A program made the position numbers and the translations under genes. From assembly GCF_011745625.1 (NCBI RefSeq), contig NW_027191507.1, positions 55,565 through 75,564 of the forward strand: a stretch of DNA of 20,000 nt, written 5' to 3'. The notes beneath the pieces were generated by a model. The model saw nothing but the letters and a program-made list of their open reading frames with translations. It ran no database searches and was not told the DNA's origin. The stretch comes from Cladosporium halotolerans (taxonomy: Eukaryota). Position 1 is the stretch's first letter. Every line of letters begins with the position of its first letter. Positions 1-20,000 of the stretch are shown here, piece after piece.

Positions 1-71
1 CAAAGCTCTCTGGATTTCCCAGCCCGCTTCTACTCGCACGAAATCCACACTGGACAGCAGCCATATTTAAC

Positions 72-1301
72 ATGGTCAAAGCCCCCATCCTCCACTTACC
101 TCGAAGCCCCCACATCTATCACATCCCGCTTAAAATCTTGCCGATATTCAATACCAGTCGCCGACCTAGTGCGTACGTCTTTGCGGAAAGGATCAGTCCT
201 TCATTCACGCCTCGGACTCTTCATTTACAGAGTTACCAGAGGCAGATTGATCAACAACAACCAAAGTCCACGTTCTTACCAAGACGGCCAATCCCAAGAC
301 GGGCGCTACATCACACACCCAACAGCGTACATACCGAAGTCATGTCCCAAACAGTCACCGTCGACAGCATGCATGATTCAGCCACTGGTACGTGGCAATA
401 CATTGTCGCCGATCCGCACACCCTTGACGCCGTCATCATCGACCCAGTCTTAGATTACGACATTTCAACACATACCATCAGCACCCACACCGCCGATGGC
501 CTCAAGTCTTTGATTGAAGACAAGGGTTACAAAATCATCAGGATCCTCGAGACACATGCGCACGCAGACCATCTGACAGCCGCCTCATACTTGCAAACCG
601 TCCTAGAGCGGGACCATGGTTCTAAGCCGCCTATCTGCATTGGAAAGCGGATCCGTGAGGTGCAGCGCGTGTTCGGACAGAGATACGGTGTTTACGACTC
701 CGAGCTGAATGCGGCGTTCGATCAGCTCATGGATGACGATGAGGAGTTTTGTATTGGCCAGCTAAAAGCCAAAACAATTCATCTTCCGGGCCACACACCA
801 GATCACGTCGGTTACCTCGTCGAAGGTAAGCAATGTCAGCAGCAAAACAAACGACTTTGGAATTTGCTAATACAAGGCCTCGCAGACAACATCTTTTGCG
901 GCGATTCGGTGTTCAACGCCGACCTAGGCACCGCGCGCTGCGACTTTCCCGGCGGCAGTGCAAAAGATTTATACCACTCGACTCGCAAGTTGCTGAGCCT
1001 GCCCGACAACTACAAGATTTGGACCGGCCATGACTACCCGTCTAACGGCCGGATGTGTCCAGTCCCGTACATGAGCGTGGCTGACCAGAAGCAGCGCAAT
1101 CGCTACCTTTCAGACATTGTATCGGAGCAGGATTTTCTGCACATGCGCACCCAACGTGATGCACAACTGAAGGAGCCGAAAATGCTACACCCGTCGTTGC
1201 AAATCAATATTCGCGGAGGACGGCTACCCGCTCCGATGCCATCTGGTGAACGAACCTTAACATTTCCTATTCGACTGGAGACCGAGCACTGGGGAGTTTG
1301 A
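72..1301 (+). CDS. Persulfide (sulfur) dioxygenase-like metallo-beta-lactamase-fold protein (ETHE1/Blh/SdoA family); exons 72-825 and 886-1301; alternative start at ATG 342
   Basis: Motifs TWQYIVAD..DPVLDYD, ILETHAHADH (HxHxDH), PGHTPDH, GDSVF, GTARCDFPGG, GHDYP and PSLQINIRGGRLP. Removing the in-frame 60-nt intron joins VGYLVE-DNIFCGDS. Length is 389 aa from ATG72 or 299 aa from ATG342. The N-terminal extension is R/S/P-rich and acid-poor. Confidence 0.92.
   Translation: MVKAPILHLPRSPHIYHIPLKILPIFNTSRRPSAYVFAERISPSFTPRTLHLQSYQRQIDQQQPKSTFLPRRPIPRRALHHTPNSVHTEVMSQTVTVDSMHDSATGTWQYIVADPHTLDAVIIDPVLDYDISTHTISTHTADGLKSLIEDKGYKIIRILETHAHADHLTAASYLQTVLERDHGSKPPICIGKRIREVQRVFGQRYGVYDSELNAAFDQLMDDDEEFCIGQLKAKTIHLPGHTPDHVGYLVEGKQCQQQNKRLWNLLIQGLADNIFCGDSVFNADLGTARCDFPGGSAKDLYHSTRKLLSLPDNYKIWTGHDYPSNGRMCPVPYMSVADQKQRNRYLSDIVSEQDFLHMRTQRDAQLKEPKMLHPSLQINIRGGRLPAPMPSGERTLTFPIRLETEHWGV
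826..885 (+). other. 60-nt in-frame spliceosomal intron in the dioxygenase gene
   Basis: GTAAGC donor at 826, GCTAAT branch site at 866-871, CAG acceptor at 883-885. The read-through peptide GKQCQQQNKRLWNLLIQGLA interrupts the conserved motif. Confidence 0.9.
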
Positions 1302-1537
1302 ATAGCATCGCAAGTTTTGCCATTTCAACAATATGCGCATAGCCAGCATTTATCCATCAACTAGCAATGAACACTGTATGAGTATCACCAACTTCATAAT
1401 TGTGCGCCATGCTTGTCTTTTGCCACTGGGAGAAGTTGTTCTGAACTGTTAAGAATGAACTCTCGGGAAACATGCCACAAAGGAAGGAACATAGTGTAAT
1501 TTGATCTGCAGTAGTCAACAAAGATAATAGTATTTGA

Positions 1538-2532
1538 TCACAACGACAGCCACGACCCTAGGCGAGGTTTCCAACCACCGCCTGCATGCGGATCTGTCTG
1601 GTCCAATCGCCACAACGTGGTCTGCACTCGCAAATCTGCGAGAAATTCTGCTTCTGTGGATTTTGCGTGCTTATTGAGAGCCGCACATTCGGCGACAGAG
1701 TCGCGCGGCTTAGATGAGGTCGACGGGCTACCATCTCCCTGCTCTCGCCAGACGCGGGTGTTGGCAGGGAGGGACAAGACCCGTTGCATAGAGTTCCAAG
1801 CGTCACGATGGTGTGATGAGTCTTTCGACGGATCATCGGCAGCGCGGAAAGCGACGCTCTCGAGGTCTGCATGCGCCAAGTCCTCTCTCAGAGTCGCGAT
1901 TGAGTGTGCGCCAAAAACATCGTTGCCCACTACATAAGCGCGGCGATGGGGTTTACCAAAGCCTGGCATGTGCATGCATTCCAGAGAGAGCCAGCCCAAA
2001 ATGATTTCGCCATCATTAAGGCCAGCGCGGAATGTTGTCTAGAATGAGCTACTAGCACCGTATTTGCGCTGCCACAAAAGGTCGAGGCCAGAGACGGTAG
2101 CTTCGTTACAGAGCTGCGGTGCATATCCTGCATTCTGAGATACCAAGCGGCGGATAGGCAGTGAGGGTTCGCAACATGTGTCTCCAGGATGTAGTCGACA
2201 ATAGAGCTGCGCTCTTTCATTACAGTAATGATGGCGTCGGCGGCGCTTGTTGACATGGCAGCCGGGTCAGCACAGGTCAGCACAGCGGTCGCGGACGGGA
2301 TCGAGCACTACACAGTGCATTGTAGTAGCATCAGCTACAATGTATTGCCATGTGTCTGTAGATGCTGCGTATACGTTATGGACAACCGACGAAGTATCGA
2401 AGGCCGCGGTCGGCAATTCTGAAGGTACGCCGGATGTCGTCAGCTTGGAGAAATGGTCGAACAACAAGACTTGATAAGCCTTTTGGCCGTGGATGAGGGG
2501 TATACAAAGGTCTTGATCAGGCCCAGAATCAT
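1538..2532 (-). pseudogene. Disrupted, catalytically degenerate paralog of the persulfide dioxygenase (start uncertain, ATG 2532 or upstream)
   Basis: Pieces across frames align to gene 1: TDTWQYIVADATTMHCVVLDPVRD; YILETHVANPHCLSAAWYL; GYAPQLCNEATVSGLDLLWQRKYG; HMPGFGKPHRRAYVVGNDVFGAHS; NSMQRVLSLPANTRVW; SVAECAALNKH..EAEFL. Lesions are a 10-bp tandem duplication (2265-2284), a frameshift at ~2128 and an in-frame TAG at 2041-2039. Confidence 0.85.
2265..2284. repeat. 10-bp tandem duplication GGTCAGCACA x2 causing a frameshift in the paralog
   Basis: Seen directly. Removing one copy restores ...DRCADPAAMSTSAAD... Confidence 0.9.
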
Positions 2533-2927
2533 TTGCAAGAAATGAATTTTGTCGCGTGATGTGAAGGGGGAAGAGAAAACGACGAGGAGACGGGAGCGAT
2601 GCAGAATGAAGAGTACAAACATTGACGAGCGAGCCCCCGCGTGCATGTAGTCGCCGATGTTTCCGAGTCCCCGGCCACTCGAGTCCGTGCTTCATGATAT
2701 TGATCGGTATAGCTCCCTCCCGGGACCCATTGCAAATCGTTGCGTTGACGGAAGATTCCATAATTGAACTTCAAGACGAATGTATCTGTTGGCCCCGTAC
2801 GCCTTTCTCGCTTAGTCATGTTCATGCACCAGGTTGCATAGGCTGCACACACATAGATGCGAGAAGGGAGGTCACGAGTACGTACGGCGATTTAGTTAGA
2901 TATCCAGCGTTACTATACAGATAGCTG

Positions 2928-4760
2928 CTAGAGTATGTTGTTTGAAAAAAAATTACTTGACATTTCATCTGTCAAAAAAAGATCGAACCAAAATGGGTTA
3001 TTGCCCATGCTGTCGCTGTCGGCCATGGCACTGTCTCGGAAAGAAGTAGCGTGAGGCGACAAGGCATGCGTCGAGAAAATGGTCTCGGCAACGACTTTGA
3101 GACAACGCGCTGAATTTTGAGCGAGCGTGTATCGCTCACCTAGCCTTTGCAGTGCACCGAGCATCAGAACGACTCTGTCTCTATGCTGTTGGAGGCAGTC
3201 TAGCCCGCCACGGGGTACATGGATGGATCCTGCCGCGAGTTGAATAACGCATCCTAACACCAGGCCACAAATGAAAAAGGGCGAATTTCTGTCTAAACGC
3301 CATGGCACAGTAGCGAGGTTCGCCAAATCCTTTGAAGCGGCGATAGCTTTGACAGTGTGGTGTCTGGAAGTAGGCGCCAATTGTATATAGCCGTTCGCAC
3401 AGGCGATGTCTTTTGCAGACGGCACCGTGTCGGGCAGGTCGCTCCTGGGGAAATGAAGGAAGATGGTAGCGCACGCAATGATGCAGCGTGCTTCGAAAAG
3501 CATCAAATCGACATCTCCCGAAGGACCAACGACGTCTCTATATAAGAACGGGAGATTGTAATCCCAACCTGCAAGCGCGTTATTTAGTGCCTGGATGTTG
3601 TCAGGAAGAGCATCGTCCTGGGAAGCAATAGTCAGAACTCGGCTGACAAGCGGATCGCATCTATGCGAAAGCACAAAGTTGAGAAGCTGGCTTGCGGCTC
3701 CGGTGAAAAAACTCGATTCTCAAACGCTCGGAGTATAGGAGGGCTTGGATCACATTCACCTGCTTCATAGGGCCTGGGCACATGGTAGAAAGGGGAGCGT
3801 CTTTGCGCAGGCGGTTTGGAAAATCGGACGGCGGTGTATCGCCGCGAAATAGATGTCGACGGTGTACAGCTCCCACCATGTCCTTCGGAGACTCTCTTCC
3901 ACCAAAGAGGAACAAGCTGAATTTTCTCGCGCGAAGGTCGGCTCCTGCATGCCCAAATCCAACACGATGCTGGCAGCACGAGTGACACACGCGGCGGCCT
4001 CTGTGGGCTGCTGACGGGCGTGAAAAATGATAGCGTACAAAACCAGTGCTTGGACCCTAGAGGGCTTCTGCTCGTGAGGCTCCAACATGGCAGAAGAAAC
4101 TGCCTCTTGGAGCCCTAAGTCTCCAGGCATGGACGTCGCATAGTGCTGTCCAGCGAAGCATACGACCAGATCGAGGTAGTGCGGATACTGTTGCGCCGCG
4201 TAAAAAGGCCTAGGCACAAGGAAGGGATGTGCGGCAAAGAAATGGATATAGAAGAGGTTGAGCGGGCGGTCGTGGTCGGAAGGATTGAGTGCCCACGTCG
4301 ACGGCACGGCGGGAGTTAAGGATGGCAAAGGCAGTTGTGGATTGCTGAGGCATCCTGGGACAGTGGATGTTGACGAACAAGAAGCGGCAAGGGCCGGACA
4401 GGCGGCGAGGGCGGTATGGGAGGTGTTGCTGCTGGCGGACCGTGCAGATGCGGCTGTGGGCGGCGTCGGTGGCGCGGTGGTGTCTGCAGCGGGACCAGCT
4501 CCTGCCGCAGCAGGCAAAGGTCGGTGATTGCGAGGTCGATGTGGAGAAGCATTTGCATGTGCCGGATCGCCTCGCCTGCCGCGGCGGCCAAGTCCACGGC
4601 GGGAAGCGGTGTAAGAGCAGGCAACAGCGTCGACAAGGCAGCGGCCACAGGTGGGCGACGCGCCGTCGCACTTGAGATGTTTGCGTCGACACCCATCACA
4701 CGCCAGCGGCGCCGGGCGAGCGGTGGCGTCAGAGTTGGCAGCGGCGGTGGCGGTGGCCAT
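2928..4760 (-). pseudogene. Zn(II)2Cys6 transcription factor with fungal middle-homology region, interrupted by two frameshifts (~3768 and ~3650); alternative ATG at 4787
   Basis: ACDGCRRKHLKCDGASPTCGRCLVDAVAC binuclear cluster, LNLFYIHFFAAHPFL and EESLRRTWWELYTVD. The protein continues LPCAQAL / YEAGECDPSPP..FENRVF..SFSTLCFRIDAIR / LVSRVLTIAS only by switching frames. TGA at 3767-3765 ends the first frame. About 610 aa if repaired. Confidence 0.85.
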
Positions 4761-6091
4761 GAAGGAGAAGATATCGATAAATTGCATGTCCAGCCTTTGA
4801 GAACTCCAGCTTGTCGCCGGTCTTGTGTTGTGAGAGGACAGCCCTGAGCAAGAATTCGGCGACTGGGACTCGGCGACTACAAGTCTCCACAAGCGGTGGC
4901 GTCAGCTCATCGCCCGTTGAGGAACAGACCCCGAGAAAGATCGCCGACAGCAACCTTCAGTCCCGAAGACGCCGGATGGCTAAGATCAATCAATTTACAT
5001 CTCGTGCTTCAGCTCCTGCAACTCCCGCACTCGCGTCGCAGCAACTAATTACCTCTTGGGAGCGCACACATACCATCGAGCCTCCAAACCAAGCCACGCA
5101 TCATCCCTCGCGAAAATGTGCAAAAAGGCAACCTGTGACACGTGCGGTCGGTCTCTCCTACCTACTCTTCACTCCGCCCGATTCTAACGCCTTTTGTGTC
5201 GCAGGCAAGCGATCCTGGTGGGGATGCGGCAATGTATTACTGCTGCCAACTCTCTACGCGACAAGCATAAACTAACGTGTCGGCAAGCACATCCCAAGCA
5301 TCATGGATTCCGTGCAGGAGCAAGACAGATGCAAATGCGGGCCCAGGGTCTTTGCGGAGGGCAAGGAGTATCCTCCGAAGGCCGCTCAAGCCGATTGACT
5401 GTAAGGAGGAGGATAGAACGTTTGGGAGGCTCCGATAGAGCATCTACGTACCACTTTCCCACCCACGTCTGTTGCCATTTGGAGTCCAGATCATACCTGT
5501 ACACCCTTCAATCGTCTCCTTCATAGACATGGAACCAACCTTGGCTATCGCCATCAAATCACCAGCGTTTCGAATCATGCTTGCACAAGCTCTGCTAGAT
5601 GAAGCGAACCAACCCAATCCTTCATTCTGTTCTATCGCAGGTCAGGTTTGCTCGTCGCAGAATTCACATACGCGCGGCAACTGGCCGGAATGTTACACAG
5701 CTAGTCCGGACACACACTCTTGGAGCCATTAGCCATTAGGAATGGTCGGGCGACAATGAGTGCACACTGAACTTTCGCCTTACCTCGGCGAGCTCAACAT
5801 TAATATTCTGTAATCGCCGTCGAAGTCGGCGATCAAACCCAAGGTCTTGACCTTGCCTTAGGGAGGTAGACTGTGACATGGGTCGTGCAAGACAAGGTCT
5901 TCGATTACAAAGATGGTTCGCCACCGGCACTATATGAACGACGAGTTCCGTCCGCAGCGTTTCCAAGTCCCCCTATCCGCCACAGAAACCGTAACATTAA
6001 CAAAGCCAGCGCGAATTGTGCCTGTTAGAAACGCCGCCACTACCGAGCCGTTGTCACAGCGTGTTGACGCGATCTTCCTAAATCATTCAAC

Positions 6092-7165
6092 ATGCTATCC
6101 GGATCCATATCCGCCGCTTGCACAGGAGCAATCTTCGGCGCCTCACTCACAGCATCGGGTGTCTATCTCCCTTTTGTGATAATCGGTCAATTCCGGCTGG
6201 CAGACTTCCACATGTTCCACGTCTTTGCAACAGCCATGGGCTCAAGCGCGTAAGTAGCAAGTCAAACCGTCGCCACGAGCTCGCAAACGTTGTTTGCGCG
6301 TGCGCTAATTTTTCACTGCTCCAGTATCGTCATGCTCGCATTGGATAAACTCGACATCATCAAGCGGCCGGTACGAATGAACTCGACGCTAGATCTTTGG
6401 TCACCATACGACGCAAATCTGGCTGGCGGCGTTCTAGTCGGAATCGGAATGGCGCTGTCAGGGGCATGTCCTGGCACGGTCCTGGTTCAACTTGTCCAAG
6501 GAATACCATCTGCAAAGGCCACAGCCTCCGGAGCCTTGCTAGGTGCTGCACTTTACATATGGTTCAAAGAGCGGCGCAAGAAGGCTCAACTTGGGGCTGA
6601 AGGGGAACGAAACACCTGCAGAAAGACGATATCTGACGTGTCCAAAGTCCCTGAATTTGCCGTATACTCATTATTTGGGGTGGCGATCGCGGTGATTTTG
6701 CGATTTACACGAGCTGGGAGCGAGCAATCTTTGGCATTGCCCGTGGCCGGTGGCTTTCTGATCGGCTGCGCGCAAGCCGTGTCGCTGCTACTCACTCGCA
6801 GCCCTCTCGGTGTCTCGACCGCCTACGAACACCTTAGCCGACACATCCTCAATGCATTGCGCGGAGAGATTGGAGCAAGGCCAAGCCTTCCCTCGAAACC
6901 CATCATCTTTTCCCTTGGTATCGTTGCCGGAAGCATTGCCTTGCTTGCGAGCAATCCCAGCTTCGGCAACTCAGCACACGAGTCTGCTGTACCGGCATGG
7001 CAGGCTTTCATTGGGGGTGTTGTCATGACTTTCGGCGCCAGGCTGGGGGATGGCTGCACTTCTGGACATGGATTGTCTGGCCTCAGTGCCATGTCTGCTT
7101 CAAGTCTTGTGACAGTGGCTGCGATGTTTGGTGCTGGTATCTCGACCAGGGCGTTGATGGCATGA
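6092..7165 (+). CDS. YeeE/YedE (thiosulfate/sulfur-compound transporter, TsuA/PmpAB-like) integral membrane protein; exons 6092-6249 and 6325-7165, 332 aa
   Basis: ATG 6092 opens MLSGSISAACTGAIFGASLTASGVY... The intron is 6250-6324 (GTAAGT, GCTAAT at 6304, CAG). Family motifs GGVLVGIGMALSGACPGT and GGVVMTFGARLGDGCTSGHGLSG are present, with many Gly-rich hydrophobic segments. The spliced frame is intact. Confidence 0.9.
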
Positions 7166-7847
7166 TGCAGAAGAGGCTACCGATGCAAGATCATCGAACC
7201 CTTCGATTGCAGAACTCATCTCCTCCTTCCAGACACTTGCGCGGCACTCGACATTACATGGCCAGAAGCCAAACACATATGCAGTCTTGCTGGTTTCCAG
7301 CAGTCTCAGATCGAGGACAGTGAAGACATTCGCATGTGGGTGGGTCCGCTACTTAACTCTTGCAAGTATACTTATTTCTTCTCGTGCAGTCACCGAGCCA
7401 ATTTCATGACCTCCGTCTCTTGATATGCTCCATGACTCGATGTGGTCCTTGCTCTAAAGGTACTCCTTACCCTAACGAGGATCGCCTCTTCACATGCGCT
7501 GTGCCCAAATTTTCTCCAATCTTTATCACAGCTTCGCCCCGCAAGTCACTTGTATATCTCAATCCTCAGCTTCCTCTACCCCCTTGAATACTGTGATCGG
7601 GCAACAAGCCAAGAGGCTTCCTGCAATTTCAGACATTCAATACACCATGATGCTGGCCAGACATTGATACAATGTCCTGCAATTGTTCCTTTCGCATTTG
7701 GCAGGAAGCATTTATCCAGTAGCTCAACAATAAATCTTGAGCCTTCCTCAGAACTCTAGCGTGATTGTGTTCCACTCCTGATTCTGTGGCCATGTTGTGA
7801 TGGTGTAAGAGATCTTTGATTTTGAGTGAACTATTGAAGAGGCAAAA

Positions 7848-9171
7848 TCATCTACATACACAAGTGAAGCGGAAAGTATCGTTCGCCTCGAGCCGGAATT
7901 CTTGGCAATTTGCCACCCGTAGCTCGAACGCCATTACTCTTGCTTCGCCCGCGGCGTGCCACTGTACACCACTCCGGGATATCTCCTCACTCACTGCATC
8001 CTCATCGGCTGGTCGCCGTTTCACATTCATGCATTATTGACTCGGGTGGCTGTATGCCATTCGTTCGTTCGCTTGCGACTCGACCTCCTCGGCCTTGCTG
8101 TCGACTTTCGTCGCGCCCGGTCTTTCGATGTGAGTTGCAAAGAGCGCTTTCGCTCTTCTGGTAGCCCGCTGCTCGACCTCGGCCACGATTGACATTTGTC
8201 GCAGGTTTTCCGAACGTCTGAGACGCGAGGGGTTGTTGCTGCTCGTCACTGAGGACCTTGGGATCGACTTTCATCATACCTGGCCCAGAGATTCGAGTTG
8301 CTCGTGCTGGCTGCATGCTTGCCACTCCTGGTCGGTGCATCGACTTGTATCGTGCCCGGTTTAGACGTGCGTGCCGCGAGGTTTGCCCGCTGCTTATCAA
8401 CCATGACTTGGCCCTTGGGCATTGCCTTGGGATGCTCCTGGTTTAGGTCTGCGACTTGCAAGATTGGCTTTTCTTGGTAGAGTTTGCCTAATCCTCATCG
8501 TCCATGACCTGGGCTTGTAGTCCGGTCTGGGTCTGACCAGTGCAACGCTTGCCTTTTTCCGTGTGGTTGGCCTGCTCTCGTCATCCACCCCTCGGTTTAA
8601 TGCTCGGTCTAGGTCTGACAGGATACAAGGCTTGCGTTTATGTTGCGAGGTTCCATCGGCTTTCATCATCCACGCCTCGGCCTGATGCCCGGTCTGAGTC
8701 TGACAAATGCAAGGCTCGCTGATTTTGGGAGTTAGGTTTGCTTGTTCTCGTCATTCATTCCTTGGCTTGATGCCCAGTCTAGGTCTGACAACTGCAAAGC
8801 TTGCGGGTCCTTCGCGTGGGGTTCGCCTGCTGCTCATCATCCATCGCCTTGGCCTGTCGCCCGGTCTAGGTATGGGAGCTTCAAGGCTTGTCATTTTTGG
8901 TGTGAGGTCCCGGTGGACTCGTGGCAGGGGTGGAGAGCGATTGCTGCATTGCTCGCGGAGCTGGATAAGCGCGGTCTCCCGATTGTCGAGCAAGAGGGAT
9001 TCCTCATCCATGAGTGTCTCGACAGTCAATGCCTTTACCCGGTCGGCCTGTGCTGTTTGCTTGTCAGTGTGCGGCCGGTGTGAGCTCAGAATGATTTGGT
9101 GGGCGTACCCATCCTGCGGTCTTGGGAATTGGAGTTGTGGGATCTCGTAAAGGGCGCGTTCTTGGCGCCAT
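7848..9171 (-). pseudogene. Degenerate gene of unknown function with an internal repeat array
   Basis: ATG 9171 (MAPRTRPLRDPTTPIPKTAGW) and a plausible intron 9108-9048 (GTACGC..CTGAC..CAG) splice in frame to ADRVKALTVETLMDEESLLLDNRE. ORFs 8034-8249 and 7848-8030 share a frame, separated by a single TAA. The repeat region is frameshifted. No recognisable family. Confidence 0.4.
8430..8892. repeat. Degenerate tandem array, six units of ~82-87 bp
   Basis: The core CGGTCTAGGTCTGAC...TGCAAGGCTTGC recurs at 8439, 8523, 8605, 8690, 8775 and 8862 (spacings 84, 82, 85, 85, 87). A TC(A/G)TC(A/C)(T/A)-like ..TCATCCA..CCTTGGCC motif lies between the cores. Confidence 0.8.
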
Positions 9172-9432
9172 CTGGGGTGTAGTCTAGTCAGCTGGTATTT
9201 GCGATGCGAAGGGAATTAGGAGGGGATCCGGGGGGGGGTGGGAAAGTGGTGTGAAGCGGCAAGAAAGTCGCGAAGTCAGCTTGCTTGTGCACTTTGATAT
9301 TGCTACTGCTTACGGGAGGTGCGGGATCTACGCCAAGTACCGCAATATGCAAGCTGGGAAGGTGCGTTCCGTGTAACTCACTTCACTTTCCGCCAGTTAA
9401 TCTGAAGGTCGTCAGAGCTTCCATCCGTTTTC

Positions 9433-9605
9433 TTTGTCAGACTGGCAGTCTGTCTCGTTCTTCGGATATAAGGGCCGGGTGAGGTGTTGGCTAATCTCTC
9501 GGGTCTTGAGTGCAAGGCGACATTCGTTGTAGTGTTAGGCAGCGTTTAGGGACGGCTCATACGGTCTTCGTGCATGGCGTGAATGAGAATCATCATCATC
9601 ATCAT
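9433..9605 (+). repeat. Left arm of a long inverted repeat (partner 19828-20000)
   Basis: Ungapped manual alignment to the reverse complement of 19828-20000 gives about 17 mismatches in 173 nt (~90%). The inner end falls in a (CAT)n run. Confidence 0.92.
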
Positions 9606-9883
9606 CGACCGGGGGGTCGGCATAACTTACAGGTAAGGGACGGCAGGTCACGCGTCAACATAGATCCGAGGCTAGAACTAACGCGAGCGCAACACGAGTG
9701 CCCCCGCGTCTTGCGTTTTGAGGTGTTCACGCGTGAGACATGTTGATTTATATACAGCGCATGAGCAGAAAATCACGAATATTTATTTCGAATGGTGAAG
9801 AACACCACTTGTGATCTCTCAGTGTCATTTATGAAGTTCATATCTCGCCTCGAACTGATGGCCGATGTAAGCTCACTCGCAAG

Positions 9884-12225
9884 TTGGGGCCTCGAAGTGG
9901 CGACGCCCGTTATTACAGACAACGGTCGTGGAGTCTGGCACACAGCAGCCCGTACACAGCAGATAGTACATTCGCATCTGACAGCGCGATCGGCCACGAA
10001 GACGGATTGGAGATCGCTGCAACGAACGCTAACGAATTGTTTCACTACGATCCGCATTACAGAGTGCTAGTCTGCCGGTATCATGGGTATGCCGTCAGGA
10101 ATCTGACAATGCATCTTAGGCTGCAACACAAAGTCCGCAGCTCTCAGAGGCCAGCAATAGAGAAGGATTTCCGGGATTGTGAACTACTGGAGCCGGCACA
10201 GGTCTCAATACCGCCGCCGCTGCACGCACCGCTTAACTGGCTCGTTGCGCCGACCCGCGGATATCAGTGCGACGAAGCCGGATATACCAAGATCTTGAAG
10301 AGCCGAGATGGAATCAGGAAGCACTGTTATAAGGAGCATGCATAGAGGTCGACCGCCGACGATCCGGAACACTGGCACGTACAAACGATATTTCAATCCA
10401 AAGCACATCGTCGGTCTTCCGTCGTCGATTATCACGACAAGGTCGTACGGGAACTAGAGCAGTCGACGAAAGGCATTAGCCCGCAGAATCAGCAAATTCT
10501 AGAGTAGTGGGATCGTCGCCTAGAAGAGCAAGAAGAGGTATCGCAGCTCGCAGAAGCCGTAGTAGCAAAAACCGATCATATACGGTGGTTCAGATGCAAT
10601 AAATGGCCGTATCATCTGGCAGAGAGCAATTTGCGGCAGTTGAGTCGAGCGTGTCGCATGCCGAAACGGGATGAAGAAACGCTTAGAGACGTACTACCGA
10701 AGAAGGCGGAAGCTTTAGTTGAGGAGTGTGTGAAAGGATTGCCGATACTTAGGCACGTTATCAGACGGTGGTTACGAAGCGTAAAAGCATCCGAGCCGGA
10801 CGTACGGCCGTTGGCAAAACTGCAGAACGAAGACAGTCAGAAGCGGTATGCCGTCTATATAACCCGATTCATTTGCTATACGCTACGAAGATGGAAAAGC
10901 CGCGAAGAAGTCGAAAATGCGGGCTATAGAGGGCCAGTGGAGGTGAAGGGGTTGGCGAGAATGAAGATGAGGATGAAGACGAAGATGAGGTCGGGGACGG
11001 GATTGAAGATGATGTCGAAGACGCAATAACGGTCAATCTGACAGGCGGACCGGCAAGTGGCGGCATACGAGAGGCCGACACGATGAAAGAAGCTCGAAGG
11101 CTACATCCGTGGCCGAACGGCTTACACGCGATCGTTGGTCGGCTTTGGAGAGCACTATCTCCGTCGTGTTACTTAGAGTCACCGGAAATGGTCATACTGT
11201 AACTCTTCAGGCACGTTCTATTTAGCACGTAGGAGTTAATGTCTTCGAACGCCCGTTACTGCATTTATAGCTATACTAGGCCTCGTTAAAGACATATATA
11301 GGCTACGAGAAGGGAACGATTTTTCGTTTATACTAGCGGGAATCGTCTACTATTATCGAGTGCTAGGCGTTAAGATTATTCTCCTAAAGACGTTTCGTAG
11401 GGGAGAGACGGCGGAAGACGACGAACGCTTTCTTAAGTGCGACTTAAGTATCTAGCTAACGGAGTATTTAGTCCGATAGCGGAAATTATTAGCTTATTAT
11501 TATATAGTCGATACTATACGTTTAATTACGCGAACGCCGGTACGATATCTTAATCCCTAGACGCTAGTATAATTATATATAGAGGGTAGAATATCCCGCT
11601 CGCGAGATTTAAGAAGCTTATCTACGTAGTAGTAATAGAGGCCGAGAATATACTATAATAAGAGGTACTCTAGTAGGTCGATACTAAGCGATTTAAACTC
11701 CCTATAGATATATTAAGGGACGACGTAACGTATAATTATAGAGACTAATCGTTTCTATTCGTTTCTAAATAATACGCGTAATAGACTCGATATACGTATA
11801 TAGGTACCCGTATAGATATTAGCGTACGTTAACGGTAGAAAGCTTCTATAGGGAGAGCGCTAGTAACGTTAGGAGATACGTAAGTATCTACGATAGATAA
11901 AGTATTTTCGAGAACTACTATTACTCTACGTATACTAGACTAGAAGATAGCTAGTATAAGGTACCTAGATATCCGTCCGGTCTAAAAACGGTTATATATA
12001 GGACCGAAACGTTTTTACGATATATAGGTATATAGCGGTCGTAATACGATATTATAAAAGCGTATCGTAGTACGATTAACTAAAGGTCGTCTCGCGTTTT
12101 CTCGCGTAGCGAGTCGGATAGCTAATAGCTAGGTATTTAGTATACGTACGTCCGCTATAAGAGTTACTTTCTCTTTAATCGTAGCGATAAATATATTATA
12201 CCCGTAGTAACTATATTTATAATAG
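9884..12225 (+). pseudogene. DUF3505 (OrsD-like) N-terminus plus the conserved middle domain of fungal telomere-linked/RecQ-helicase-associated mobile genes; RIP-mutated and 3'-truncated
   Basis: ELFHYDPHYRVLVCRYHGYAVRNL..HLRLQH and GYQC..IRKHCYKEH Zn-finger-like motifs, then IRRWLRS..RPLAKLQNEDSQKRY and an acidic tract. RIP-damaged reads follow: PLLH.IAILG, YLANG.FSP, DRNVF..AVV.RYYKS....KVV.RFL..RVG.L...YLVYVRP. Stops are TAG/TAA at expected W/Q codons. No helicase motifs were seen. Confidence 0.75.
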
Positions 12226-14034
12226 GCGTTTAAAGGAACCTCCTTTATTTGGATTTCTTATAGTACTATACGGCGGTTAGAAAAGCGGGGATCGGTACTA
12301 ACGTTTTGGGAATATATTTAGATCGTAGATAGGCGAGAAGGTATATTATAATAGTTTCGGTAGTAATCGCTCTAGAATATAATCGTCGAGCTAGCCTAGT
12401 TAGTAGTCGGGTTATACTTCTTAAGCTAAGGTATACTAAGTACGATTAGGTAGTATACTAAGCGGGTAAGAAAAAGGGGTACTCCCTTTTCTATATAGTA
12501 TCTGGTTTCTAGGTCGTAGCGGATATAGTAATAGATAATCTAAGCGTCTTCGCTCTTATCGGCGAAGCTATATAGCTTAAACGGACGGCGGAGGGTATAG
12601 ATTAGTAGACGATACTCTTTTACCTACGTTTAATCTATAAAGGCGTCTCCCTTATAACTAGTATCGAGGAGGGAATAAGTTTTAATAGAATAGTATTCGG
12701 AGGTTATAGTAATAAATAACTTTAGTAAACGGGCTCGTTAATACTTAGCTTTAACGGGTATCTTAAAAATCGATATTCTTAAGATCTTAATAAACGGGTA
12801 GTATTACGGGTTAGGATAGGGTATAGTAACGGGTATAGAAGTACGTAATAATAATCTACGTTATCCTAGCGCCTAGAGACGACTTTAGCTAGGCTTATTT
12901 CGTTTTCCGAATACGACGTAGGCGAGGAGTATTAGTCGCGAGCGATATTATATAGGCTAATTAGAGAAGGCGATAATTCGGACTCCTCTTATGAATTAAT
13001 AAATTAATAGATAGATAGTACACTAATTAATTATTATCTTAGAGACTATATAACTTAATCAAAAATTATACTAATTACTTATACCTTTAGGTTTAGCTAA
13101 TTCTAGACTTTAAATCGATAGTATACTTTATAATATTAAAACGTCGATATTTATTAGTCTATTTAAGTAGCTTATAGAATCTTCTTAGAAAACTTTTATA
13201 ATACTATATCTTAAGCGCTTTTTATTTAAAAGGCTACTATTTATATTTTCCTTTAAATTAACTATATCGATATTAGTACTATAGAATATAGACTCGGATA
13301 AAATATCTATACTATAAGTCCGATAGTATAGTATTATAGTTATACTAGATATAGTAAGGCTTACTTAGGCTTTATATTAGATCGCTCTATATAAGTTTTT
13401 ATCTTCTTAGTATTATAGGGAATAATTAATATAGTTATCTAAAGCGTTCTTCTAATTAGCTACGCTCTATATACTACTACTAAGTACCTAATAGACTATA
13501 GTTAAAAATACTACTATACTTAGTAGTAGCTAGATAGATACTTATAGAAGGTAATAGACCTTAGATAGTTACTTTTCTTTAGATTATCTTTTATAGTACG
13601 TTAGTATAGATATATAGTAGCCTCCGTAGGTAATAATAATATAAAAAGTTACTTAAATCTCTTCTCTATCCTACTTAGTAAAGTATTAACCTAATAATAT
13701 CTTTAGGTTTATATTTATCCTATCTCCTATCTACCTTCTATACTAGTAGATAGTTCTAACCTTAGCCTACTTTACTACTACCCTACTACTAAAAGGTAGT
13801 TATCTAGATAGCCTCTAGCTTTATATAAGTTTCCTATAAGAGAACCGTTATATATTTAGTATAGCCTCTATAGATAAATAACTACCTTTAGATACGATAG
13901 CCTAAATCGAACTCTTAAATAAACGCGATTCCTAAAAATTAAACTTTAGTTTAACCTCTATTAGCTTTAGTAAATTTCTACTAAGAGTAAAGATTATAAT
14001 TATATAGAGTATATACGTAAAGTTATATAGTAAA

Positions 14035-14245
14035 TATTATCTATAAAAATATAGTGGTAAGTTCCTATAAAAGGTAATAAAGGATTATCTTAAAGACTAA
14101 TCGCTACTTTATAAGCTAATCCTCTACGCTTTATAGGTAAACTATATATAGCTACTAAGCGCCCCTTAGGCGCGGCGTTATAGGTTACGTAATTAGGTTA
14201 CGTAGCCTAGGTCCTAACTTTACTTCCTTATACTCTTCTATAATA
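14035..14245 (-). repeat. Putative 3' LTR (~210 bp), preceded on the minus strand by a polypurine tract at 14260-14246
   Basis: The minus strand reads AGGAGAGGAGGTAAT then TATTATAG (RIP form of TGTTA...). The plus-strand end reads TATTAT at 14035. A duplicated GGTTACGTA motif (RIP form of GGTCACGTG) and a TATA-like run lie inside. Boundaries are inferred without a second copy. Confidence 0.45.
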
Positions 14246-14569
14246 ATTACCTCCTCTCCTAGATAGATATCCTAGCTACCTAATAGGTACTTTTATAGCG
14301 CCTCTTTATCGCCTTAAATACGCTTCGTACTTCTATACGTTTCCGCCTAGTTACTAGGTAGTATTATATAGTTACTTAGAGTCCTTAACTAGCGCTCCTT
14401 CCTTAGGTAGGTAAATATTATTATTAGGGGTAATAAAGGTAGGTATAATAGTATCGCGAGTTCTCCTTACTAGTACTTCTCTTTCTCTCCCTATATATAT
14501 ATATATACTAAGCGCCTCCCCTCCGCGCCGCCTTTAGCTTATTAGCGCCGCGCCTACTTACCGTATTAT

Positions 14570-15409
14570 CTACGTAAGCTTCTTTTTCTATCTATAGTAG
14601 TAGTATACGCGCTACTATACCTATTTATAATAAGTATATTCTATACCTTAACGACGACCTTACTAGTAAGTTTATAAAACGCGCTCCGCGCGCGTAGCGC
14701 TAGTACTTCCCTTACTCTAAGCTAGCTAACTATCTTTATAGCTAACCTATACGATAGTATTTTTAGTCTTATAGCTAAAAAGTACTCCCGCTACGCCTTA
14801 TCCTATAAGGCCTATATAGCGGTTAAGCCGCCCTACTTTCCTACGCTTATATACGCCGTATACGCTTATAAGGCGTATACGCGTACCTTAGATAACGACG
14901 ATAACGACCTAGCGGCCCGCGTATAGGCCGCTATTAACGCTAGCGAGGCCGTCTATAAGGACTTACGGTCTTTTAACTATAACCGTAATAAGGTCGCTAG
15001 CGACTACCCTACGCTACGTAAGGTACGTACTACTACTACGCCGGTAGATAGTAATAGTATCCTCTTACTAAAGGTATAGAGCTTACGCCGCGGCGTCCTA
15101 GCGTTTATTAAAGTCGGTAAGACTATAAGTACTTTCCTTACTCTCTCTTCGCTTCTTAAGCGCTTTATATACTTACTACTTTCGTAGATCGTTTAGGATC
15201 GCCTAATCCCTAATAAGGCCTCTAAGGCTATTAACGCTATTAACGAGGCTCTTAGGCCGGACGCCCTAATAGGGGCCTTCCGGCGTAAGTCCTTATTACT
15301 ACTACTACGCCGTCGCTATACCTACGCTTTATTAGAGGGCGAGGATAAAGAGGATAAGGATAAGAATAAGGGAAGAGAGGAGGGTAGTAAGAAGGAGATA
15401 GAAGAGTAA
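14570..15409 (+). pseudogene. Antisense accessory gene inside the retrotransposon: three exons (..14665, 14742-15124, 15188-15409), inferred six-Cys motif and acidic tail; start not resolved
   Basis: Intron 14666-14741 has GTAAGT, GCTAAC at 14725 and TAG. Intron 15125-15187 has ATAAGT (RIP form of GTAAGT) and TAG. The spliced frame is continuous except for RIP-type TAG/TAA codons and ends EGEDKEDKDKNKGREEGSKKEIEE-TAA (15407-15409). Confidence 0.65.
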
Positions 15410-15589
15410 TACTTTCTATCTCTCTCGCCTACTACGCGCCTTTATAGCGCCTTTATTTTTTATATAGCGTATCTACGCCTTAGCTACGCCGCGCTTTTAG
15501 CGGTTTTCCTCTTTTTTCATTTTCCTATTAGGCCTTAGCCTATAAAAAATAAATAAGCGATTTTCCCTTTTTTTATCTTTATTTTCGTC

Positions 15590-18500
15590 TTCTTACTTAC
15601 GTTTCGCCTATATATTATATACGCTTATTAGCTATTTCGTATTTTTATAGTTCTCTATAGGCTTCTAGCTTAAGTACTCCTCTAGCTAGCCTTTCTACTA
15701 TACTAAATACTATAGCTATTCTTTTCTTTTACGTAAATCTTTAATTACCTCTACTCTCTATTTATCTACTACCTCTATAAAGAATATAAGATACGTTAGT
15801 TCTTCGCCTACTCGCTACTACTATAGCTTTAATAGCGAGATATAGAATACGTTATAGATCTTATAGGAGCTTAGGAGTACTAGTCGGTACGCCTATAAGC
15901 CGACTACGTCTTTTGCTTAAAACGGTCTAATATACTAAGCCCTTAGCTTCCTTTTTACGCTTAGTAGATATAGATTTTTCGTTAGTAGAAGTACCTTCTC
16001 CCTAATCTTAAAGTATATTAGCTTTAAACGCTAGTTCTAATACTTCTTCTATATCTCTTAAGCGTCTTACTAACGTAACGCTAGCGTCTTATACGTTTTA
16101 TATAATTATCTTATACGCTTTATAGCTACTTATACCTTCTCCTCCTATAGTTTATCCTAAATTAGCGCCGTTCTAATCTCTAGCGACTAGCTATAAAGGA
16201 GCTCGAAAGGGCTTATATAAGTCGCCTAGTATACGCCGTTATTTGCCGCGAACTCCGCCTACGCTAGTATATCTAGCTATATCTCCTACTTTTCTAAGTA
16301 ATAGTAACGTAGGTATTACTTAAGCGTTTAGTTTATCCGCTTAGTCTACCTATCTATCTAAGGATAAAACGCTATACTTAGTCTATATTTTACCCTCGCT
16401 TTTGAAGCGAAGTTACTCTAATACTAGCTTATAAAGAGCGATTCCCTATAAAAAAGGATTCCTTTTAGTATATTAAATCTTTAGACGATATTATCTATTA
16501 GTAGCTTCGTAAGCTCTACGCTATCGTAGCGCTTAGTAGTCGCTATATATACGTTTATCTTTATATATCGATCGATAATTACTAGTATTATATCTACTAC
16601 CTAGTTCGCTATCTTTCCTAGTAGAAGATTAGTAATAAAGTCTAGCGTAATTTCCTCCTAAGGATAGGAGGGTAGTACTAATACCTACGCCTTACTATAG
16701 GGCCGGTATTACCGCGACTTTACTACTTAATATATCTAGTAAGATACTACGCGCTCTATAATATCCTTCCTTAGGGACGGCTACTAGTACTTACGGTATA
16801 GTAATACCTTCGTTTTATCTCGACTAAAGTACCCTATAAGCGGGTTATCGTAGTAGATTCGCATAAGCTCTATTCGCGCCGCGCTATCGTCGGGTATAAA
16901 TAGCGCTCCCTTATAATACTAAAGGGCGTTATATTTTACCTACGCTTATACGTCCTTTACGCGTCGACTACTTTCCTATAGCTCCGCGAGTTTATACTAG
17001 CTTCTACTCTATAAAATCTATAATACCTCTATTAGGCCGCGGTCCGGATCGTTAAACGGATCCTTATATTATACCGCTAAGTTAACGACTCGCCTTATAA
17101 TTAAGATACGGTCCTATATAGTAGAGTTACTAGCGTTATACTAGAGACTCTCTTACGCGTACGCTCTATATACTAGGGATACTACGGCCTCCTCTTTCTC
17201 CTATACTATTAGCTTCTTCTATAAGGTCGGGAGTAAGTTATAAGGCGCCTACTCTTTACTATTATAGACTAGACGCCTTAATAGGACGTCTACTAGATTC
17301 GACGGGCCGCTTTAGTATTCGATTACGAAATTAAAGGAAGCTAGGAACGTTACCTACCTAGCTTAATAGCTATTAAATTATTTTATACCTATAAAACCCC
17401 TTAGGTTATTATAGTCTATAAGTACTTATATCCTATACGTAGCGCCTTAAAGGTACTAGTAAGACTACTTAAATCCTTCTACGATCGCGAGTAACTTACT
17501 ATCGTACGTCTTATAGTTATACTTAGCCGGATTTAACTTTCTTAACTAGAAAGTAATAGGGTACTAAGTCGTATACTATTTACTAGCGGGGAGTAGTTAT
17601 AATAGTATCGCGACGATTACGAACTACGAGGCGTCCGTCTCTATCTAGAGTTTCGCCTTAGGCTTACAATACCTAAGGATAGGCGCTTCTATAAAGGCCG
17701 CTTTTACCTCCTAAAACGCCTCCTCTTCGCTTATACCCTACTAGAGCGGACCCGACTTTTTACCCTATTTCGCCTCTTTCGTAAGCGCTATTAGCGGCGC
17801 TACGATCTTAGAGTAGTTCTTAATAAATCTTCGATAGAAATTAGTAAATCCTAAGGATACCTATACGTCCTAGAAGCTCTACGGTATCGGCTATTCTTTA
17901 ATAGTAGCTACCCGGCGCCTATCTATTAAGACGCTAGTTATACCTACGATATACCCTAGGAACTCTACTTCTATCGTAAAGAAATAGTATTTCTTTTAGT
18001 TCGTATAGAGGGCGAGTTTCCGGAGTCTCTTTAGTACTATACCTAGGTCTCGCTAATACTACTCTTTCGTATCGCTATAGATAAGGATATTATCTAGGTA
18101 GACTACGTAGTAAATATCGATAAGCCCTACTATAGCCCGATTAATATATACTTAAAACGTTACCGGAGTATTAGTTAGCCTAAAAGGTATTACCTTATAT
18201 TTAAAGTAGCCGTAGCGTATACGAAACGCCGTCTTCTACTTATCGCCGCGCTTAATCGGGATTCTATAGTAAGTATCCTTAAGGTCTAATACTAAGAAGT
18301 ATATAGCTCGCCTAAGCCTATTTAGCGTTTTACTAATTAGAGGTAAGAGATACCGATTCTTCCTTATAATAGCGTTTAGCCTTTAGTAATCTATATAGAG
18401 ACGTATAAAACTATCTTTCTTTAGTATAAAGAGGATAGGCGCCCCTACTTTACTAGCGCTCCGCTAGATCTACCCGTTCTTAAGCGCCTACTTAAGGTAC

Positions 18501-19100
18501 TAGTAAAGGACCTCTAACTCTCTTATAGATAGGTTATAGAGAAGCTAGAAGGGTAGCTTCTACCTTAGCTCTAAGTTAATCGTATACTCTATACCTTTAG
18601 GGAGTAGGAGGCCTACTATATCCCCTTTAGTAAAGACGTCGCTAAATTACTAGATCTCTACTAGTAGCTCTATAGCCTCTAGTAGCGAATCCGTCCTTAT
18701 AGTATAGACGTAGGGGGCTCCCTTAAAGTCTTACTAGAACGCGCGTATATTCCCGTACGCGTATCGCCGGTATCTTACCTAGTTATATAAATTACTATAG
18801 GTCTCTCTTACTATCTACGGCAACTTTATACTTCCGTCGCTATAGCTAGCTAAAGAGGACCTTAGCCCCCTTTAACTTATAGCTAAAGAATATATCGTCT
18901 ATTAGGTACTATATATCTATAGAGTCTACGATTTATATATATAGCTTATATATACTATAGTATAGCCCCTTCTCGCCTCTAAATTCCTCTATACTTAGTA
19001 GAGGTACTTCGACCTTCTATAGGTTATATTATAACGTTAGGCGCTATAAGACGATATTTATCTCTACTACGTTATCTAGGATATAAGTAGCTTCTATACG
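15590..19100 (-). pseudogene. pol: pol polyprotein (protease, RT, RNase H, integrase, chromodomain), RIP-inactivated
   Basis: Protease-like ILDNVVEINIV at ~19050-19085. RT: GAPILFILKKD..RLYIDY, KTAFRIRYGYFKYKVIPF.LTNTP and VYLDNILIYS (YLDD at 18100-18089). RNase H: IETDAS, RKLNPAKYNYKTYDSKLLAIVE. Integrase: ITLDFIT, SIAFYP*IDR*TKRIN. Chromodomain: YLV**KG*LEEYLS*KP at ~15620-15760. Confidence 0.92.
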
Positions 19101-19189
19101 CTATCCTTACGAGTCGACTTCTCCGCGTAGGGTCTTTATAGGCTAGGAGCTTCCCGCCGTCTATATAGACTCCTAGCGAACCGCCCTAA

Positions 19190-19660
19190 CGCTAGCTAGT
19201 TAAGCTTAGGTTAGTACCTATAACGGCTTCGCTTAGGGCGCGATAGCGGTTACCTTTTATATCGCTATCTACTTAGCTCCTACCTACTTATAGTAGTTAG
19301 GATAGCTACTCCTAATATAGCCCTACTCCCGATAGCCGTAGTATTTAACGCCCTTCTACGGTTAAATCTTCCCGGCGGCTCCTTTAGGGGTAGCCTACGC
19401 TACTAGTATATTACTTAGGCGCGTAGAGAATAAATCCCTTTTCTAGAACCTAGGTAGTAGTACCTCGCCGGCGTCTTTCTTAAGGGGCCGGTTATTATAG
19501 GGGAGTAACGTCTATACTAAGGCTCTATATAGTATTAAATAAGTTCGATACCGTAAGGAGGAGGTTTACTATTTAAGTCCGCTTAGAAGGAGATAAAGAG
19601 CTAAGGCCGTTCTACTATACGCGGGCCTAGCCCGCGTATACTCCTAGGGCTTACCCTTTT
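19190..19660 (-). pseudogene. gag: gag C-terminal fragment with zinc knuckle
   Basis: 19343-19302 reads Y-Y-G-Y-R-E-*-G-Y-I-R-S-S-Y, the RIP product of C-x2-C-x4-H-x4-C. Confidence 0.75.
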
Positions 19661-19827
19661 ATACTATAATAATGCTTTAAGAAGATACCCTTATAAATAA
19701 TAGTCTTATATTTCTAAAACTTAGATATAATACTATTTATTATTTAAAATTAATAGTAGTAAGCTTTTAGCTTGATTTTACCCTACTAATCTAGTAAATT
19801 ATAAGGTTCACTTTAAACCTACTAATA

Positions 19828-20000
19828 ATGATAATAATGATGATTTTCATTCAGGCTATGCACGGAGACCGTATGAGCCGTCCCTAATCGCTACCTAACA
19901 TTACAACGAAAGTCGCCTTGCACTCATGACCCGAGAGATTAGCCAACACCTCACCCGACCCTCATGTCCGAAGAACGAGACAGTCTGCCAGTCTGGTAAA
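19828..20000 (-). repeat. Right arm of the long inverted repeat (partner 9433-9605); runs off the window edge
   Basis: Its reverse complement matches 9433-9605 at ~90%. It lies just outside the RIP-saturated block. Confidence 0.92.

Follow-up and report, generated by a model that had tools for sequence, protein, structure and literature searches.

We analysed a 20,000-nucleotide stretch of the genome of the fungus Cladosporium halotolerans (assembly GCF_011745625.1, contig NW_027191507.1, positions 55,565 to 75,564 of the forward strand; hereafter the window, numbered from its first letter) that holds a persulfide dioxygenase (PDO) gene, a gene related to it, a Zn2Cys6 transcriptional regulator and a YeeE/YedE-type membrane protein. 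The PDO and YeeE genes were found to be intact, the other two were found to be broken, and the PDO, regulator and YeeE families were found linked in other fungi as well. On balance we favour, with modest confidence, the reading that C. halotolerans has at this locus its copy of a fungal sulfur module that is conserved and lineage-restricted. In such a module, a fused YeeE/YedE channel with two cysteines would pass zero-valent sulfur (polysulfide or S8) or thiosulfate across the membrane, and the imported sulfur would become glutathione persulfide (GSSH) inside the cell. A cytosolic type II PDO would then convert GSSH to sulfite and glutathione, the sulfite would be assimilated or exported, and a dedicated Zn2Cys6 factor would activate the module genes. 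The analysis itself establishes the gene identities, the motifs, the lesions and the synteny; we infer the substrate, the direction of transport, the regulation and the physiological role from family functions.

The four features proposed by an earlier, sequence-only reading of the window were all located, spanning positions 342-7165, with gene 2 and the regulator in broken form. That reading had also described the regulator and the YeeE gene as divergently transcribed; they do lie on opposite strands and point apart, and a small plus-strand gene (5116-5398) lies between them, leaving no common intergenic region. The features are as follows.

342..825, plus strand: PDO (gene 1) exon 1, with HxHxDH (H72, H74, D76, H77) and H151; the spliced product of both exons equals the annotated WHR41_09234
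826..885, plus strand: PDO intron, 60 nt, GT..AG, in frame and stop-free
886..1301, plus strand: PDO exon 2, carrying D168, R179 (in the ARCDFPGG loop) and H210, with its stop codon at 1299-1301
1538..2443, minus strand: gene 2, predicted pseudogene of a dead PDO paralogue, placed by tblastn with its relative P0333
2441..2443, minus strand: CTG at the start site of gene 2, where the start Met of P0333 aligns
2266..2285, minus strand: 10-nt tandem duplication in gene 2, shifting the frame, with a stop immediately after
~2128, minus strand: deletion of ~16 nt in gene 2 with a frame change, upstream of the TAG
2039..2041, minus strand: in-frame TAG in gene 2, a Ser in P0333
2928..4787, minus strand: interrupted Zn2Cys6 regulator (gene 3), with Pfam Zn_clus and Fungal_trans; the open frame ends at 3765-3767
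3647..3769, minus strand: shifted stretch of the regulator, 41 codons, in frame -2 with flanks in frame -1
5116-5146, 5205-5233 and 5288-5398, plus strand: small cysteine-rich gene, 56 aa, with splicing taken from a contig of sequencing run X5
6092..6249, plus strand: YeeE/YedE (gene 4) exon 1, aligning with the N-termini of full-length fungal homologues
6250..6324, plus strand: YeeE intron, 75 nt, GTAAGT..AG, at a gap in the alignment with the homologue P0154
6325..7165, plus strand: YeeE/YedE exon 2, with Cys101 (GACPG) and Cys297 (GCTSGHG); stop codon at 7163-7165

Gene 1 had been described as a gene of persulfide-dioxygenase type, and our comparisons bear this out, predicting an intact type II PDO of the SdoA/Blh group. 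The spliced product of 299 aa is identical to the annotated C. halotolerans protein WHR41_09234, which was its top homologue, and 22 distinct Protein Data Bank (PDB) sequences matched it at E <=0.001. The matches to solved type II PDOs ran over the full length (9g8t, E 4.1e-63; 4efz, 2.6e-61; 4ysk, 4.9e-61, with residues 5-290 aligned to 7-291 of 4ysk), those to type I enzymes were weaker and partial (4ysb, 4.3e-25; human ETHE1 4chl, 7.6e-17), and glyoxalase II entries matched at 1e-07 or worse. All catalytic motifs were kept, namely H72/H74/D76/H77 (HxHxDH), H151 (PGHTPDH), D168 (CGDS), R179 (ARCDFPGG) and H210 (GHDYP). Residues H72, H74, D76, H77, H151 and D168 align with the same residues in 4ysk; HxHxDH, the His of GHT and the Asp of GD presumably make up the mononuclear iron site, with the ligand roles taken from the ETHE1 literature. 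R179 and H210 are present in 10/10 fungal PDOs of an alignment (A2) and in three PDB matches, and we take the ARCDFPGG-type loop and the HDY motif of type II PDOs to have a role in substrate binding. Furthermore, an alignment of 120 homologues has 97 columns with conservation of 95% or more, and gene 1 deviated at none of them. Against the NCBIfam Blh model (NF040641) it covered the dioxygenase part, positions 140-420 of 423, and scored 274 bits, under the equivalog cut-off of 625 because the rhodanese domain of Blh is absent.

The PDO family is widespread in Pezizomycotina, with at least 8,000 candidates at E <=0.001 in a search whose query was the unspliced 319-aa translation with the intron kept in frame. 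The 120 homologues listed are either named fungal proteins or metagenome and Logan proteins. Prokaryotic type II PDOs are reported to be limited to Proteobacteria (PMC5702731). Among the matches listed, the fungal homologues fell into two length classes of ~295-320 aa and ~360-434 aa, and the extra length of the second class may come from a targeting extension at the N-terminus or from differences between gene models; the 299-aa protein of gene 1 has no N-terminal extension.

Gene 4 had been called a YeeE/YedE transporter, and the family assignment stood: the gene is predicted to encode an intact YeeE/YedE membrane protein with both indispensable cysteines. Exon 2 alone matched Pfam Sulf_transp (PF04143) with 103.4 bits (cut-off 27; E 2.2e-29), and the full-length homologue P0154 matched with 117.7 bits. 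A profile built from 21 fungal YeeE sequences found the YeeE protein of Spirochaeta thermophila (6LEO) at E 4.3e-15, and in the profile alignment the cysteines of GACPG and GCTSGHG coincided with C91 and C293 of 6LEO. Both C91 and C293 are described as indispensable (PMC7449682), and the half-size proteins PmpB and PmpA are reported to have one indispensable cysteine each (PMC11582611). Cys101 and Cys297 were present in 111/111 aligned YeeE sequences, and across 45 conserved columns the window protein showed zero deviations; residue 295, an Asp at a position that is Gly in 103/111, is unusual and not unique. Relaxed constraint on the PDO and YeeE genes was considered and rejected, since their conserved columns are without deviation. 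The YeeE search returned 841 homologues at E <=0.001. Among the best 120 of these, the named ones came mostly from Dothideomycetes, many of them rock-inhabiting or halotolerant genera, and the others from Chaetothyriales, Verruconis, a lichen fungus and Umbelopsis; the distribution over named hosts is therefore patchy.

We then found that the linkage of PDO, regulator and YeeE is more than chance, the same families being linked in other fungi, so that the synteny expected from the sequence-only reading was recovered. In Neophaeotheca triangularis, the one assembly in which PDO and YeeE locus tags were comparable, the PDO (g3837), the regulator (g3839) and YeeE (g3841) lie on a single 856-kb contig. 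The regulator and YeeE were no more than four gene numbers apart in 3/3 assemblies with comparable tags, the other two being C. fusiforme (Q7P37_006286 and Q7P37_006287) and E. elasticus (LTS10_010843 and LTS10_010847). Four further regulator/YeeE pairs had equal longest-contig sizes (63554, 5646, 9862 and 18326), which suggests that the members of each pair lie on the same contig.

A metagenome scan with the YeeE alignment yielded 80 loci, of which the short ones were not judged. The PDO matched 18 of the 80 by tblastn, three of them at full length with 48-50% identity (L004, L017 and L016). The other 15 matches reached 23-32% identity and fell mostly on loci matching the C-terminal half of YeeE only, like the half-size bacterial proteins. 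The window regulator matched L004, L016 and L017 alone among the 80 loci, in its N- and C-terminal parts. YeeE, the PDO and a regulator homologue thus lie within ~9 kb in three of the ten long fungal loci, with identities to the window of 40-44% for YeeE, 48-50% for the PDO and ~31-34% for the regulator; the YeeE intron, with exon 1 matches upstream of exon 2, and fungal domains were found in all three. In L004 and L017 the order is YeeE, PDO and then the regulator on the opposite strand, and in L016 it is regulator, PDO and then YeeE divergent from the PDO. Because gene order and orientation differ among these clusters, the linkage has survived rearrangement. Other sulfur genes were found with them: in L016 the regulator and the PDO flank a SulP sulfate permease, and in L017 a cysteine dioxygenase is found directly upstream of YeeE. 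L004 also holds a PQ-loop protein, and L004 and L017 each hold an ABC-G transporter and a DUF1275 membrane protein. The latter was seen by the PDO or YeeE in three of the ten long loci (L004, 13152-14282; L017, 12654-13391; L007, 7526-8398), making DUF1275 a possible further member of the module, absent from the window. In the similar loci L005 and L006, YeeE adjoins a DUF1264 protein near a polyketide synthase, with sulfur genes not nearby.

The claim that the locus mirrors bacterial operons was supported by the recurrence of the PDO-YeeE pairing. We examined 80 prokaryotic YeeE-like loci, mostly from Alphaproteobacteria and at 27-37% identity apart from one short 56% segment, and found a metallo-beta-lactamase (MBL) or PDO-like gene within 6 kb in 23 of them; in three of the 23 (L083, L107 and L160) this gene is a full-length type II PDO, with 37-40% identity. 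In Cupriavidus and Sinorhizobium, YedE1E2 is reported to import zero-valent sulfur, with GSSH formation and faster oxidation by PDO2, and in Agrobacterium yedE1E2 lies upstream of blh (PMC10812762). The BigR-Blh and yedE1-yedE2-pdo2 operons of Xylella, Agrobacterium, Acinetobacter and Cupriavidus share with the fungal locus a type II PDO, a two-cysteine YeeE/YedE and a dedicated regulator. They differ in having two membrane proteins of ~130 aa each, compared with one fused, intron-containing protein of 332 aa here. BigR is a sulfide-responsive, persulfide-sensing repressor of the ArsR type (PMC9774590), whereas the fungal factor belongs to the Zn2Cys6 class and is presumably an activator. Moreover, the fungal genes are separate transcription units, to which this lineage has added a dead PDO paralogue.

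Comparison with single characterised proteins gave a similar mixture of likeness and difference. TsuA/YeeE of Escherichia coli and S. thermophila belongs to the same Pfam family, is of similar length and carries C91/C293 in GxC motifs, whereas the fungal protein has no C22 equivalent, scores under the TsuA cut-offs, shows no YeeD/TsuB gene and reaches at most ~37% identity to the best prokaryotic loci, the short segment aside. The solved type II PDOs, including Pseudomonas putida PDO2 (4YSK/4YSL, 4EFZ and 9G8T), have HxHxDH, PGHTP, GD, ARCDFPG and HDY in common with gene 1; by contrast, gene 1 has a eukaryotic host and its activity is a prediction. Among eukaryotic systems, the zinc-cluster factor Zcf2 of Candida albicans is reported to induce Cdg1 and Ssu1 against excess reduced sulfur (PMC13170222). 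This circuit likewise combines a zinc-cluster factor, a sulfur dioxygenase and a transporter, and a cysteine dioxygenase also occurs at L017, but the Candida families are different (cysteine dioxygenase and the sulfur-oxyanion efflux pump Ssu1). The mitochondrial route through sulfide:quinone oxidoreductase (SQR), ETHE1 and rhodanese shares the step from GSSH to sulfite; the PDO here, unlike that of the mitochondrial route, is of type II and has no N-terminal extension, and neither SQR nor rhodanese was found in the window or the related clusters.

The regulator retained its domains and lost its reading frame. Pfam recognised Zn_clus and Fungal_trans (E 2e-09 and 9.7e-10), and orthologues of 596-653 aa were found, the closest (P0242) at 74% identity. 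Across codons 3769..3647, frame -2 matched 6/6 orthologues at 61-83% identity, and frame -1, in which the flanks are read, contains four stops, the first at 3765-3767. The junctions imply a loss of 2 nt (in a CTATAT context) and a loss of 1 nt at opposite ends of this stretch. The frame is consequently broken after residue ~331-340 of ~600, and the gene can yield only a 331-340-aa product, as seen in the protein P0241. Contigs from four other runs (X2, X3, X4 and X5) covered one or both of the lesion sites and were gap-free relative to the window, indicating that the lesions are real, because independent contigs show them. Run X2 represents another strain, as judged from 9 substitutions over 3054-4194. 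Left of 3054, in the 3' part of the regulator, the contig of this ~0.8% divergent strain departs from the window, and the PDO side may not adjoin the regulator there. Repeat-induced point mutation (RIP) was considered as the cause of the lesions and rejected; they are mainly indels, and RIP indices of the cluster region are normal.

Gene 2 had been taken for a second dioxygenase homologue, and the homology was confirmed: it is related to gene 1 at 24% identity, interrupted (tblastn E 2e-13). Its lesions, together with a family that is without the catalytic motifs, indicate instead that it is a pseudogene from a conserved PDO-paralogue family predicted to be catalytically dead, and not a second dioxygenase. 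When 1.84 billion representatives were searched with its C-terminal 166 residues using HMMER, 23 proteins were found at E <=0.001, the best being P0333 (304 aa) with 78% identity over all 166 residues. By tblastn, residues 1-56 of P0333 fall on window 2443..2276 in frame -2, residues 54-102 on 2274..2128 in frame -3, and the protein from residue 108 on 2128..1973, again in frame -2. In the family, HVANPH replaces HxHxDH, PGFGKPH replaces PGHTPDH and FGAHS replaces CGDS; HxHxDH and GH[TS] occurred in 0/23 relatives, and FGAH stood in place of the PDO GD in 16/23. In alignment A2 the iron ligands were missing in 5/5 members of the gene 2 family and kept in 10/10 PDOs. Pfam does not recognise these dead paralogues, and Atlas features, as a lead only, group P0333 with ascomycete MBL clusters. 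In Meristemomyces frigidus the dead paralogue (LTR62_003585) lies apart from YeeE (LTR62_000889), and no separate dead paralogue was seen in the metagenome clusters, where all matches fell on the PDO gene itself. The lesions of gene 2 are read from the window assembly alone, the contigs of runs X2-X5 covering the regulator lesions instead.

We considered whether the lesions might be assembly errors or be bypassed, leaving a cluster whose regulator and second homologue are fully functional. Such a reading would fit the fact that the frame changes of each gene sum to a multiple of three (+10/~-16 in gene 2; -2/-1 in the regulator), so that the downstream frame is restored, and the fact that both genes are covered in part by contigs from a run containing sequence derived from spliced RNA. 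However, stops directly follow the first shift in both genes, and the shifted stretches preserve the ancestral protein only in the wrong frame. The gap-free contigs of four runs, one with 9 single-nucleotide differences, argue against it further, as does the finding, read from the sequence, that no GT..AG pair removes the regulator frameshifts in frame; gene 2 additionally has a TAG and no ATG. For the regulator this reading is largely refuted, and as a whole we give it very little credence.

The picture of a fungal equivalent of the bacterial operon held in synteny and gene identities and needs revision elsewhere: the regulator is frameshifted here, the second homologue belongs to a dead family, and the cluster is restricted to a lineage. 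With the PDO and YeeE intact and the regulator and dead paralogue broken, the module in C. halotolerans is either partly decayed or operates without its own regulator. Put otherwise, the species either runs the PDO and YeeE unregulated by this factor or is losing the module.

The gene between the regulator and YeeE was confirmed as a three-exon gene by the X5 contig, which joins 5000-5145, 5204-5233 and 5288-5465 and leaves out two stretches of 58 and 54 nt whose GT..AG ends fall precisely on the exon borders. It is thus expressed and spliced in this public run, and its 56-aa product carries six cysteines. The presence of this gene means that the divergent neighbour of the regulator is the small gene and not YeeE. 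Relatives of the small protein adjoin YeeE in L013 and L015 and were not found in L004, L016 or L017; it has no Pfam family (best, DUF7324, E 0.12) and might serve in the module by binding metal or sulfur. Repeats of the CGG-N5-CGG type were noticed upstream of genes, CGGRGACTCGG in L004 (~9558) and L017 (~9566) and a similar one, GGGACTCGG, at window 4857-4873 in the intergenic region between the regulator and the small gene. They are a candidate zinc-cluster site and were not used as evidence.

Several results weigh against the sulfur-module reading. Co-regulation cannot hold in C. halotolerans because the regulator is broken, and no 8-mer was common to at least 5 of 8 promoter regions from the window, L004, L016 and L017. 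Pfam matches among the window's 87 open frames of at least 65 aa were limited to the PDO, the regulator, YeeE and an OrsD-like domain, so the SQR or rhodanese that, in the sequence-only reading, may lie left of the window was not found within it, nor in the 10-kb flanks of L004, L016 and L017 (125 open frames of at least 110 aa); the lack of SQR speaks against the cluster encoding a complete H2S pathway. No YeeD/TsuB (TusA-like) partner was found among the same 87 frames, which a short or split gene could escape, and no TusA/YeeD partner was seen in the related clusters. A cysteine equivalent to C22 was not found at the aligned position of the fungal YeeE profile against 6LEO; C22 is dispensable in the S. 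thermophila protein, in which C22A works, and its E. coli equivalent is essential (PMC7449682). The NCBIfam TsuA models scored 28.3 bits against a cut-off of 400 and 17.2 against 645, in a scan made with exon 2 only (279 of 332 aa), and full-length YedE3 proteins are reported to have imported no zero-valent sulfur when tested in bacteria (PMC10812762). Seven other long fungal YeeE loci (L005, L006, L007, L012, L014, L018 and L039) are without the PDO and this regulator, and their YeeE neighbours are housekeeping or unrelated genes, so that the cluster is lineage-restricted. Moreover, the PDO occurs in many Pezizomycotina without a listed YeeE, which implies that each gene can work alone. L004 and L017 may be close relatives, in which case the three metagenome clusters count as only two independent ones.

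In one alternative the cluster is nutritional and not protective: YeeE imports thiosulfate as TsuA does, the sulfur is handed on to glutathione, and sulfite made by the PDO from GSSH is assimilated into cysteine. Among the NCBIfam models a TsuA model was indeed the closest to the YeeE exon (1.1e-06), thiosulfate uptake is reported for long YeeE proteins only (PMC7449682, PMC10812762), the L016 cluster includes a SulP sulfate permease, and the missing SQR leaves sulfide as no obvious input. Set against these points are the TsuA scores far under the cut-offs and the missing C22 equivalent and YeeD/TsuB partner; in addition, a catabolic enzyme, cysteine dioxygenase, adjoins the L017 cluster, and bacterial PDO-YedE pairs are read as serving detoxification or the handling of sulfane sulfur (PMC10812762). 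We regard the nutritional role as possible, though on the unlikely side. A further reading in which YeeE/YedE handles selenium or another chalcogen, in the manner of YedE/FdhT, and the PDO acts on a related Se/S adduct drew on weak NCBIfam matches to selenium YedE models (6.7e-05 and 0.0021). Both are far under their cut-offs (22 versus 350 bits and 17 versus 200 bits) and the neighbours at related loci are sulfur enzymes and transporters, which makes this reading scarcely credible. Finally, the genes may be neighbours that serve unrelated processes, their synteny inherited within one fungal lineage. This would be consistent with the named genomes showing linkage all being Cladosporium-related Dothideomycetes, with the absence of the partners from 7/10 long fungal YeeE loci and with the regulator being dispensable in C. 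halotolerans. It is nevertheless improbable in our view, given how distant the proteins of L004, L016 and L017 are from those of the window, how order and orientation vary among them (the PDO lies downstream of YeeE in both L004 and L017 and is divergent from it in L016), the recurrence of the PDO-YeeE pairing in bacteria and the additional sulfur genes within the clusters.

The sulfur-module reading, if true, would add a second, probably cytosolic, fungal route for sulfane sulfur or thiosulfate to what has so far been mainly the mitochondrial SQR/ETHE1 route, besides Zcf2-Cdg1-Ssu1 in Candida. It would give the eukaryotic YeeE/YedE proteins a testable role, and it supplies a candidate regulator as well as possible sensors in the form of the dead-enzyme paralogue family. 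It would also bear on tolerance to elemental-sulfur fungicides and on life in sulfur-rich or saline habitats, and the decayed C. halotolerans copy would provide a natural regulator-null comparison; H2S detoxification and fungicide tolerance themselves are putative roles. In keeping with the sequence-only reading, full-text searches turned up no published fungal cluster of this composition, except for a passing remark in PMC10812762 on STRING co-occurrence "in bacteria and fungi". A more far-reaching scenario, which we think rather doubtful, is that a forebear of stress-tolerant ascomycetes acquired a proteobacterial pdo-yeeE sulfane-sulfur module once. The two half-size channel proteins would then have merged into one and acquired an intron, a Zn2Cys6 activator would have taken the place of the ArsR-type persulfide sensor, and a duplicated PDO would have become an iron-less pseudoenzyme that binds persulfide or glutathione and senses together with the regulator. 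The module would set tolerance to elemental sulfur, polysulfide and thiosulfate and would now be disappearing from lineages such as C. halotolerans.

Along the window, G+C is ~52-54% over bases 1-11,200, and bases 11,201-20,000 are AT-rich. This ~9-kb block (11201-20000), with extreme RIP indices (a TpA/ApT ratio of 1.98 and a (CpA+TpG)/(ApC+GpT) ratio of 0.05) and almost no open frames, is a RIP-degraded repeat ~4 kb from the cluster. Between the two, the OrsD-like domain (PF12013, 1.9e-11) was found at 9815-10345 on the plus strand, followed by a charged open frame at 10508-11029 on the same strand, and the pair may be the remnant of a mobile element. Closer to the cluster, window 8001-9000 shows a strong AT skew of -0.368, and the long open frames that overlap there on the two strands have no Pfam match.

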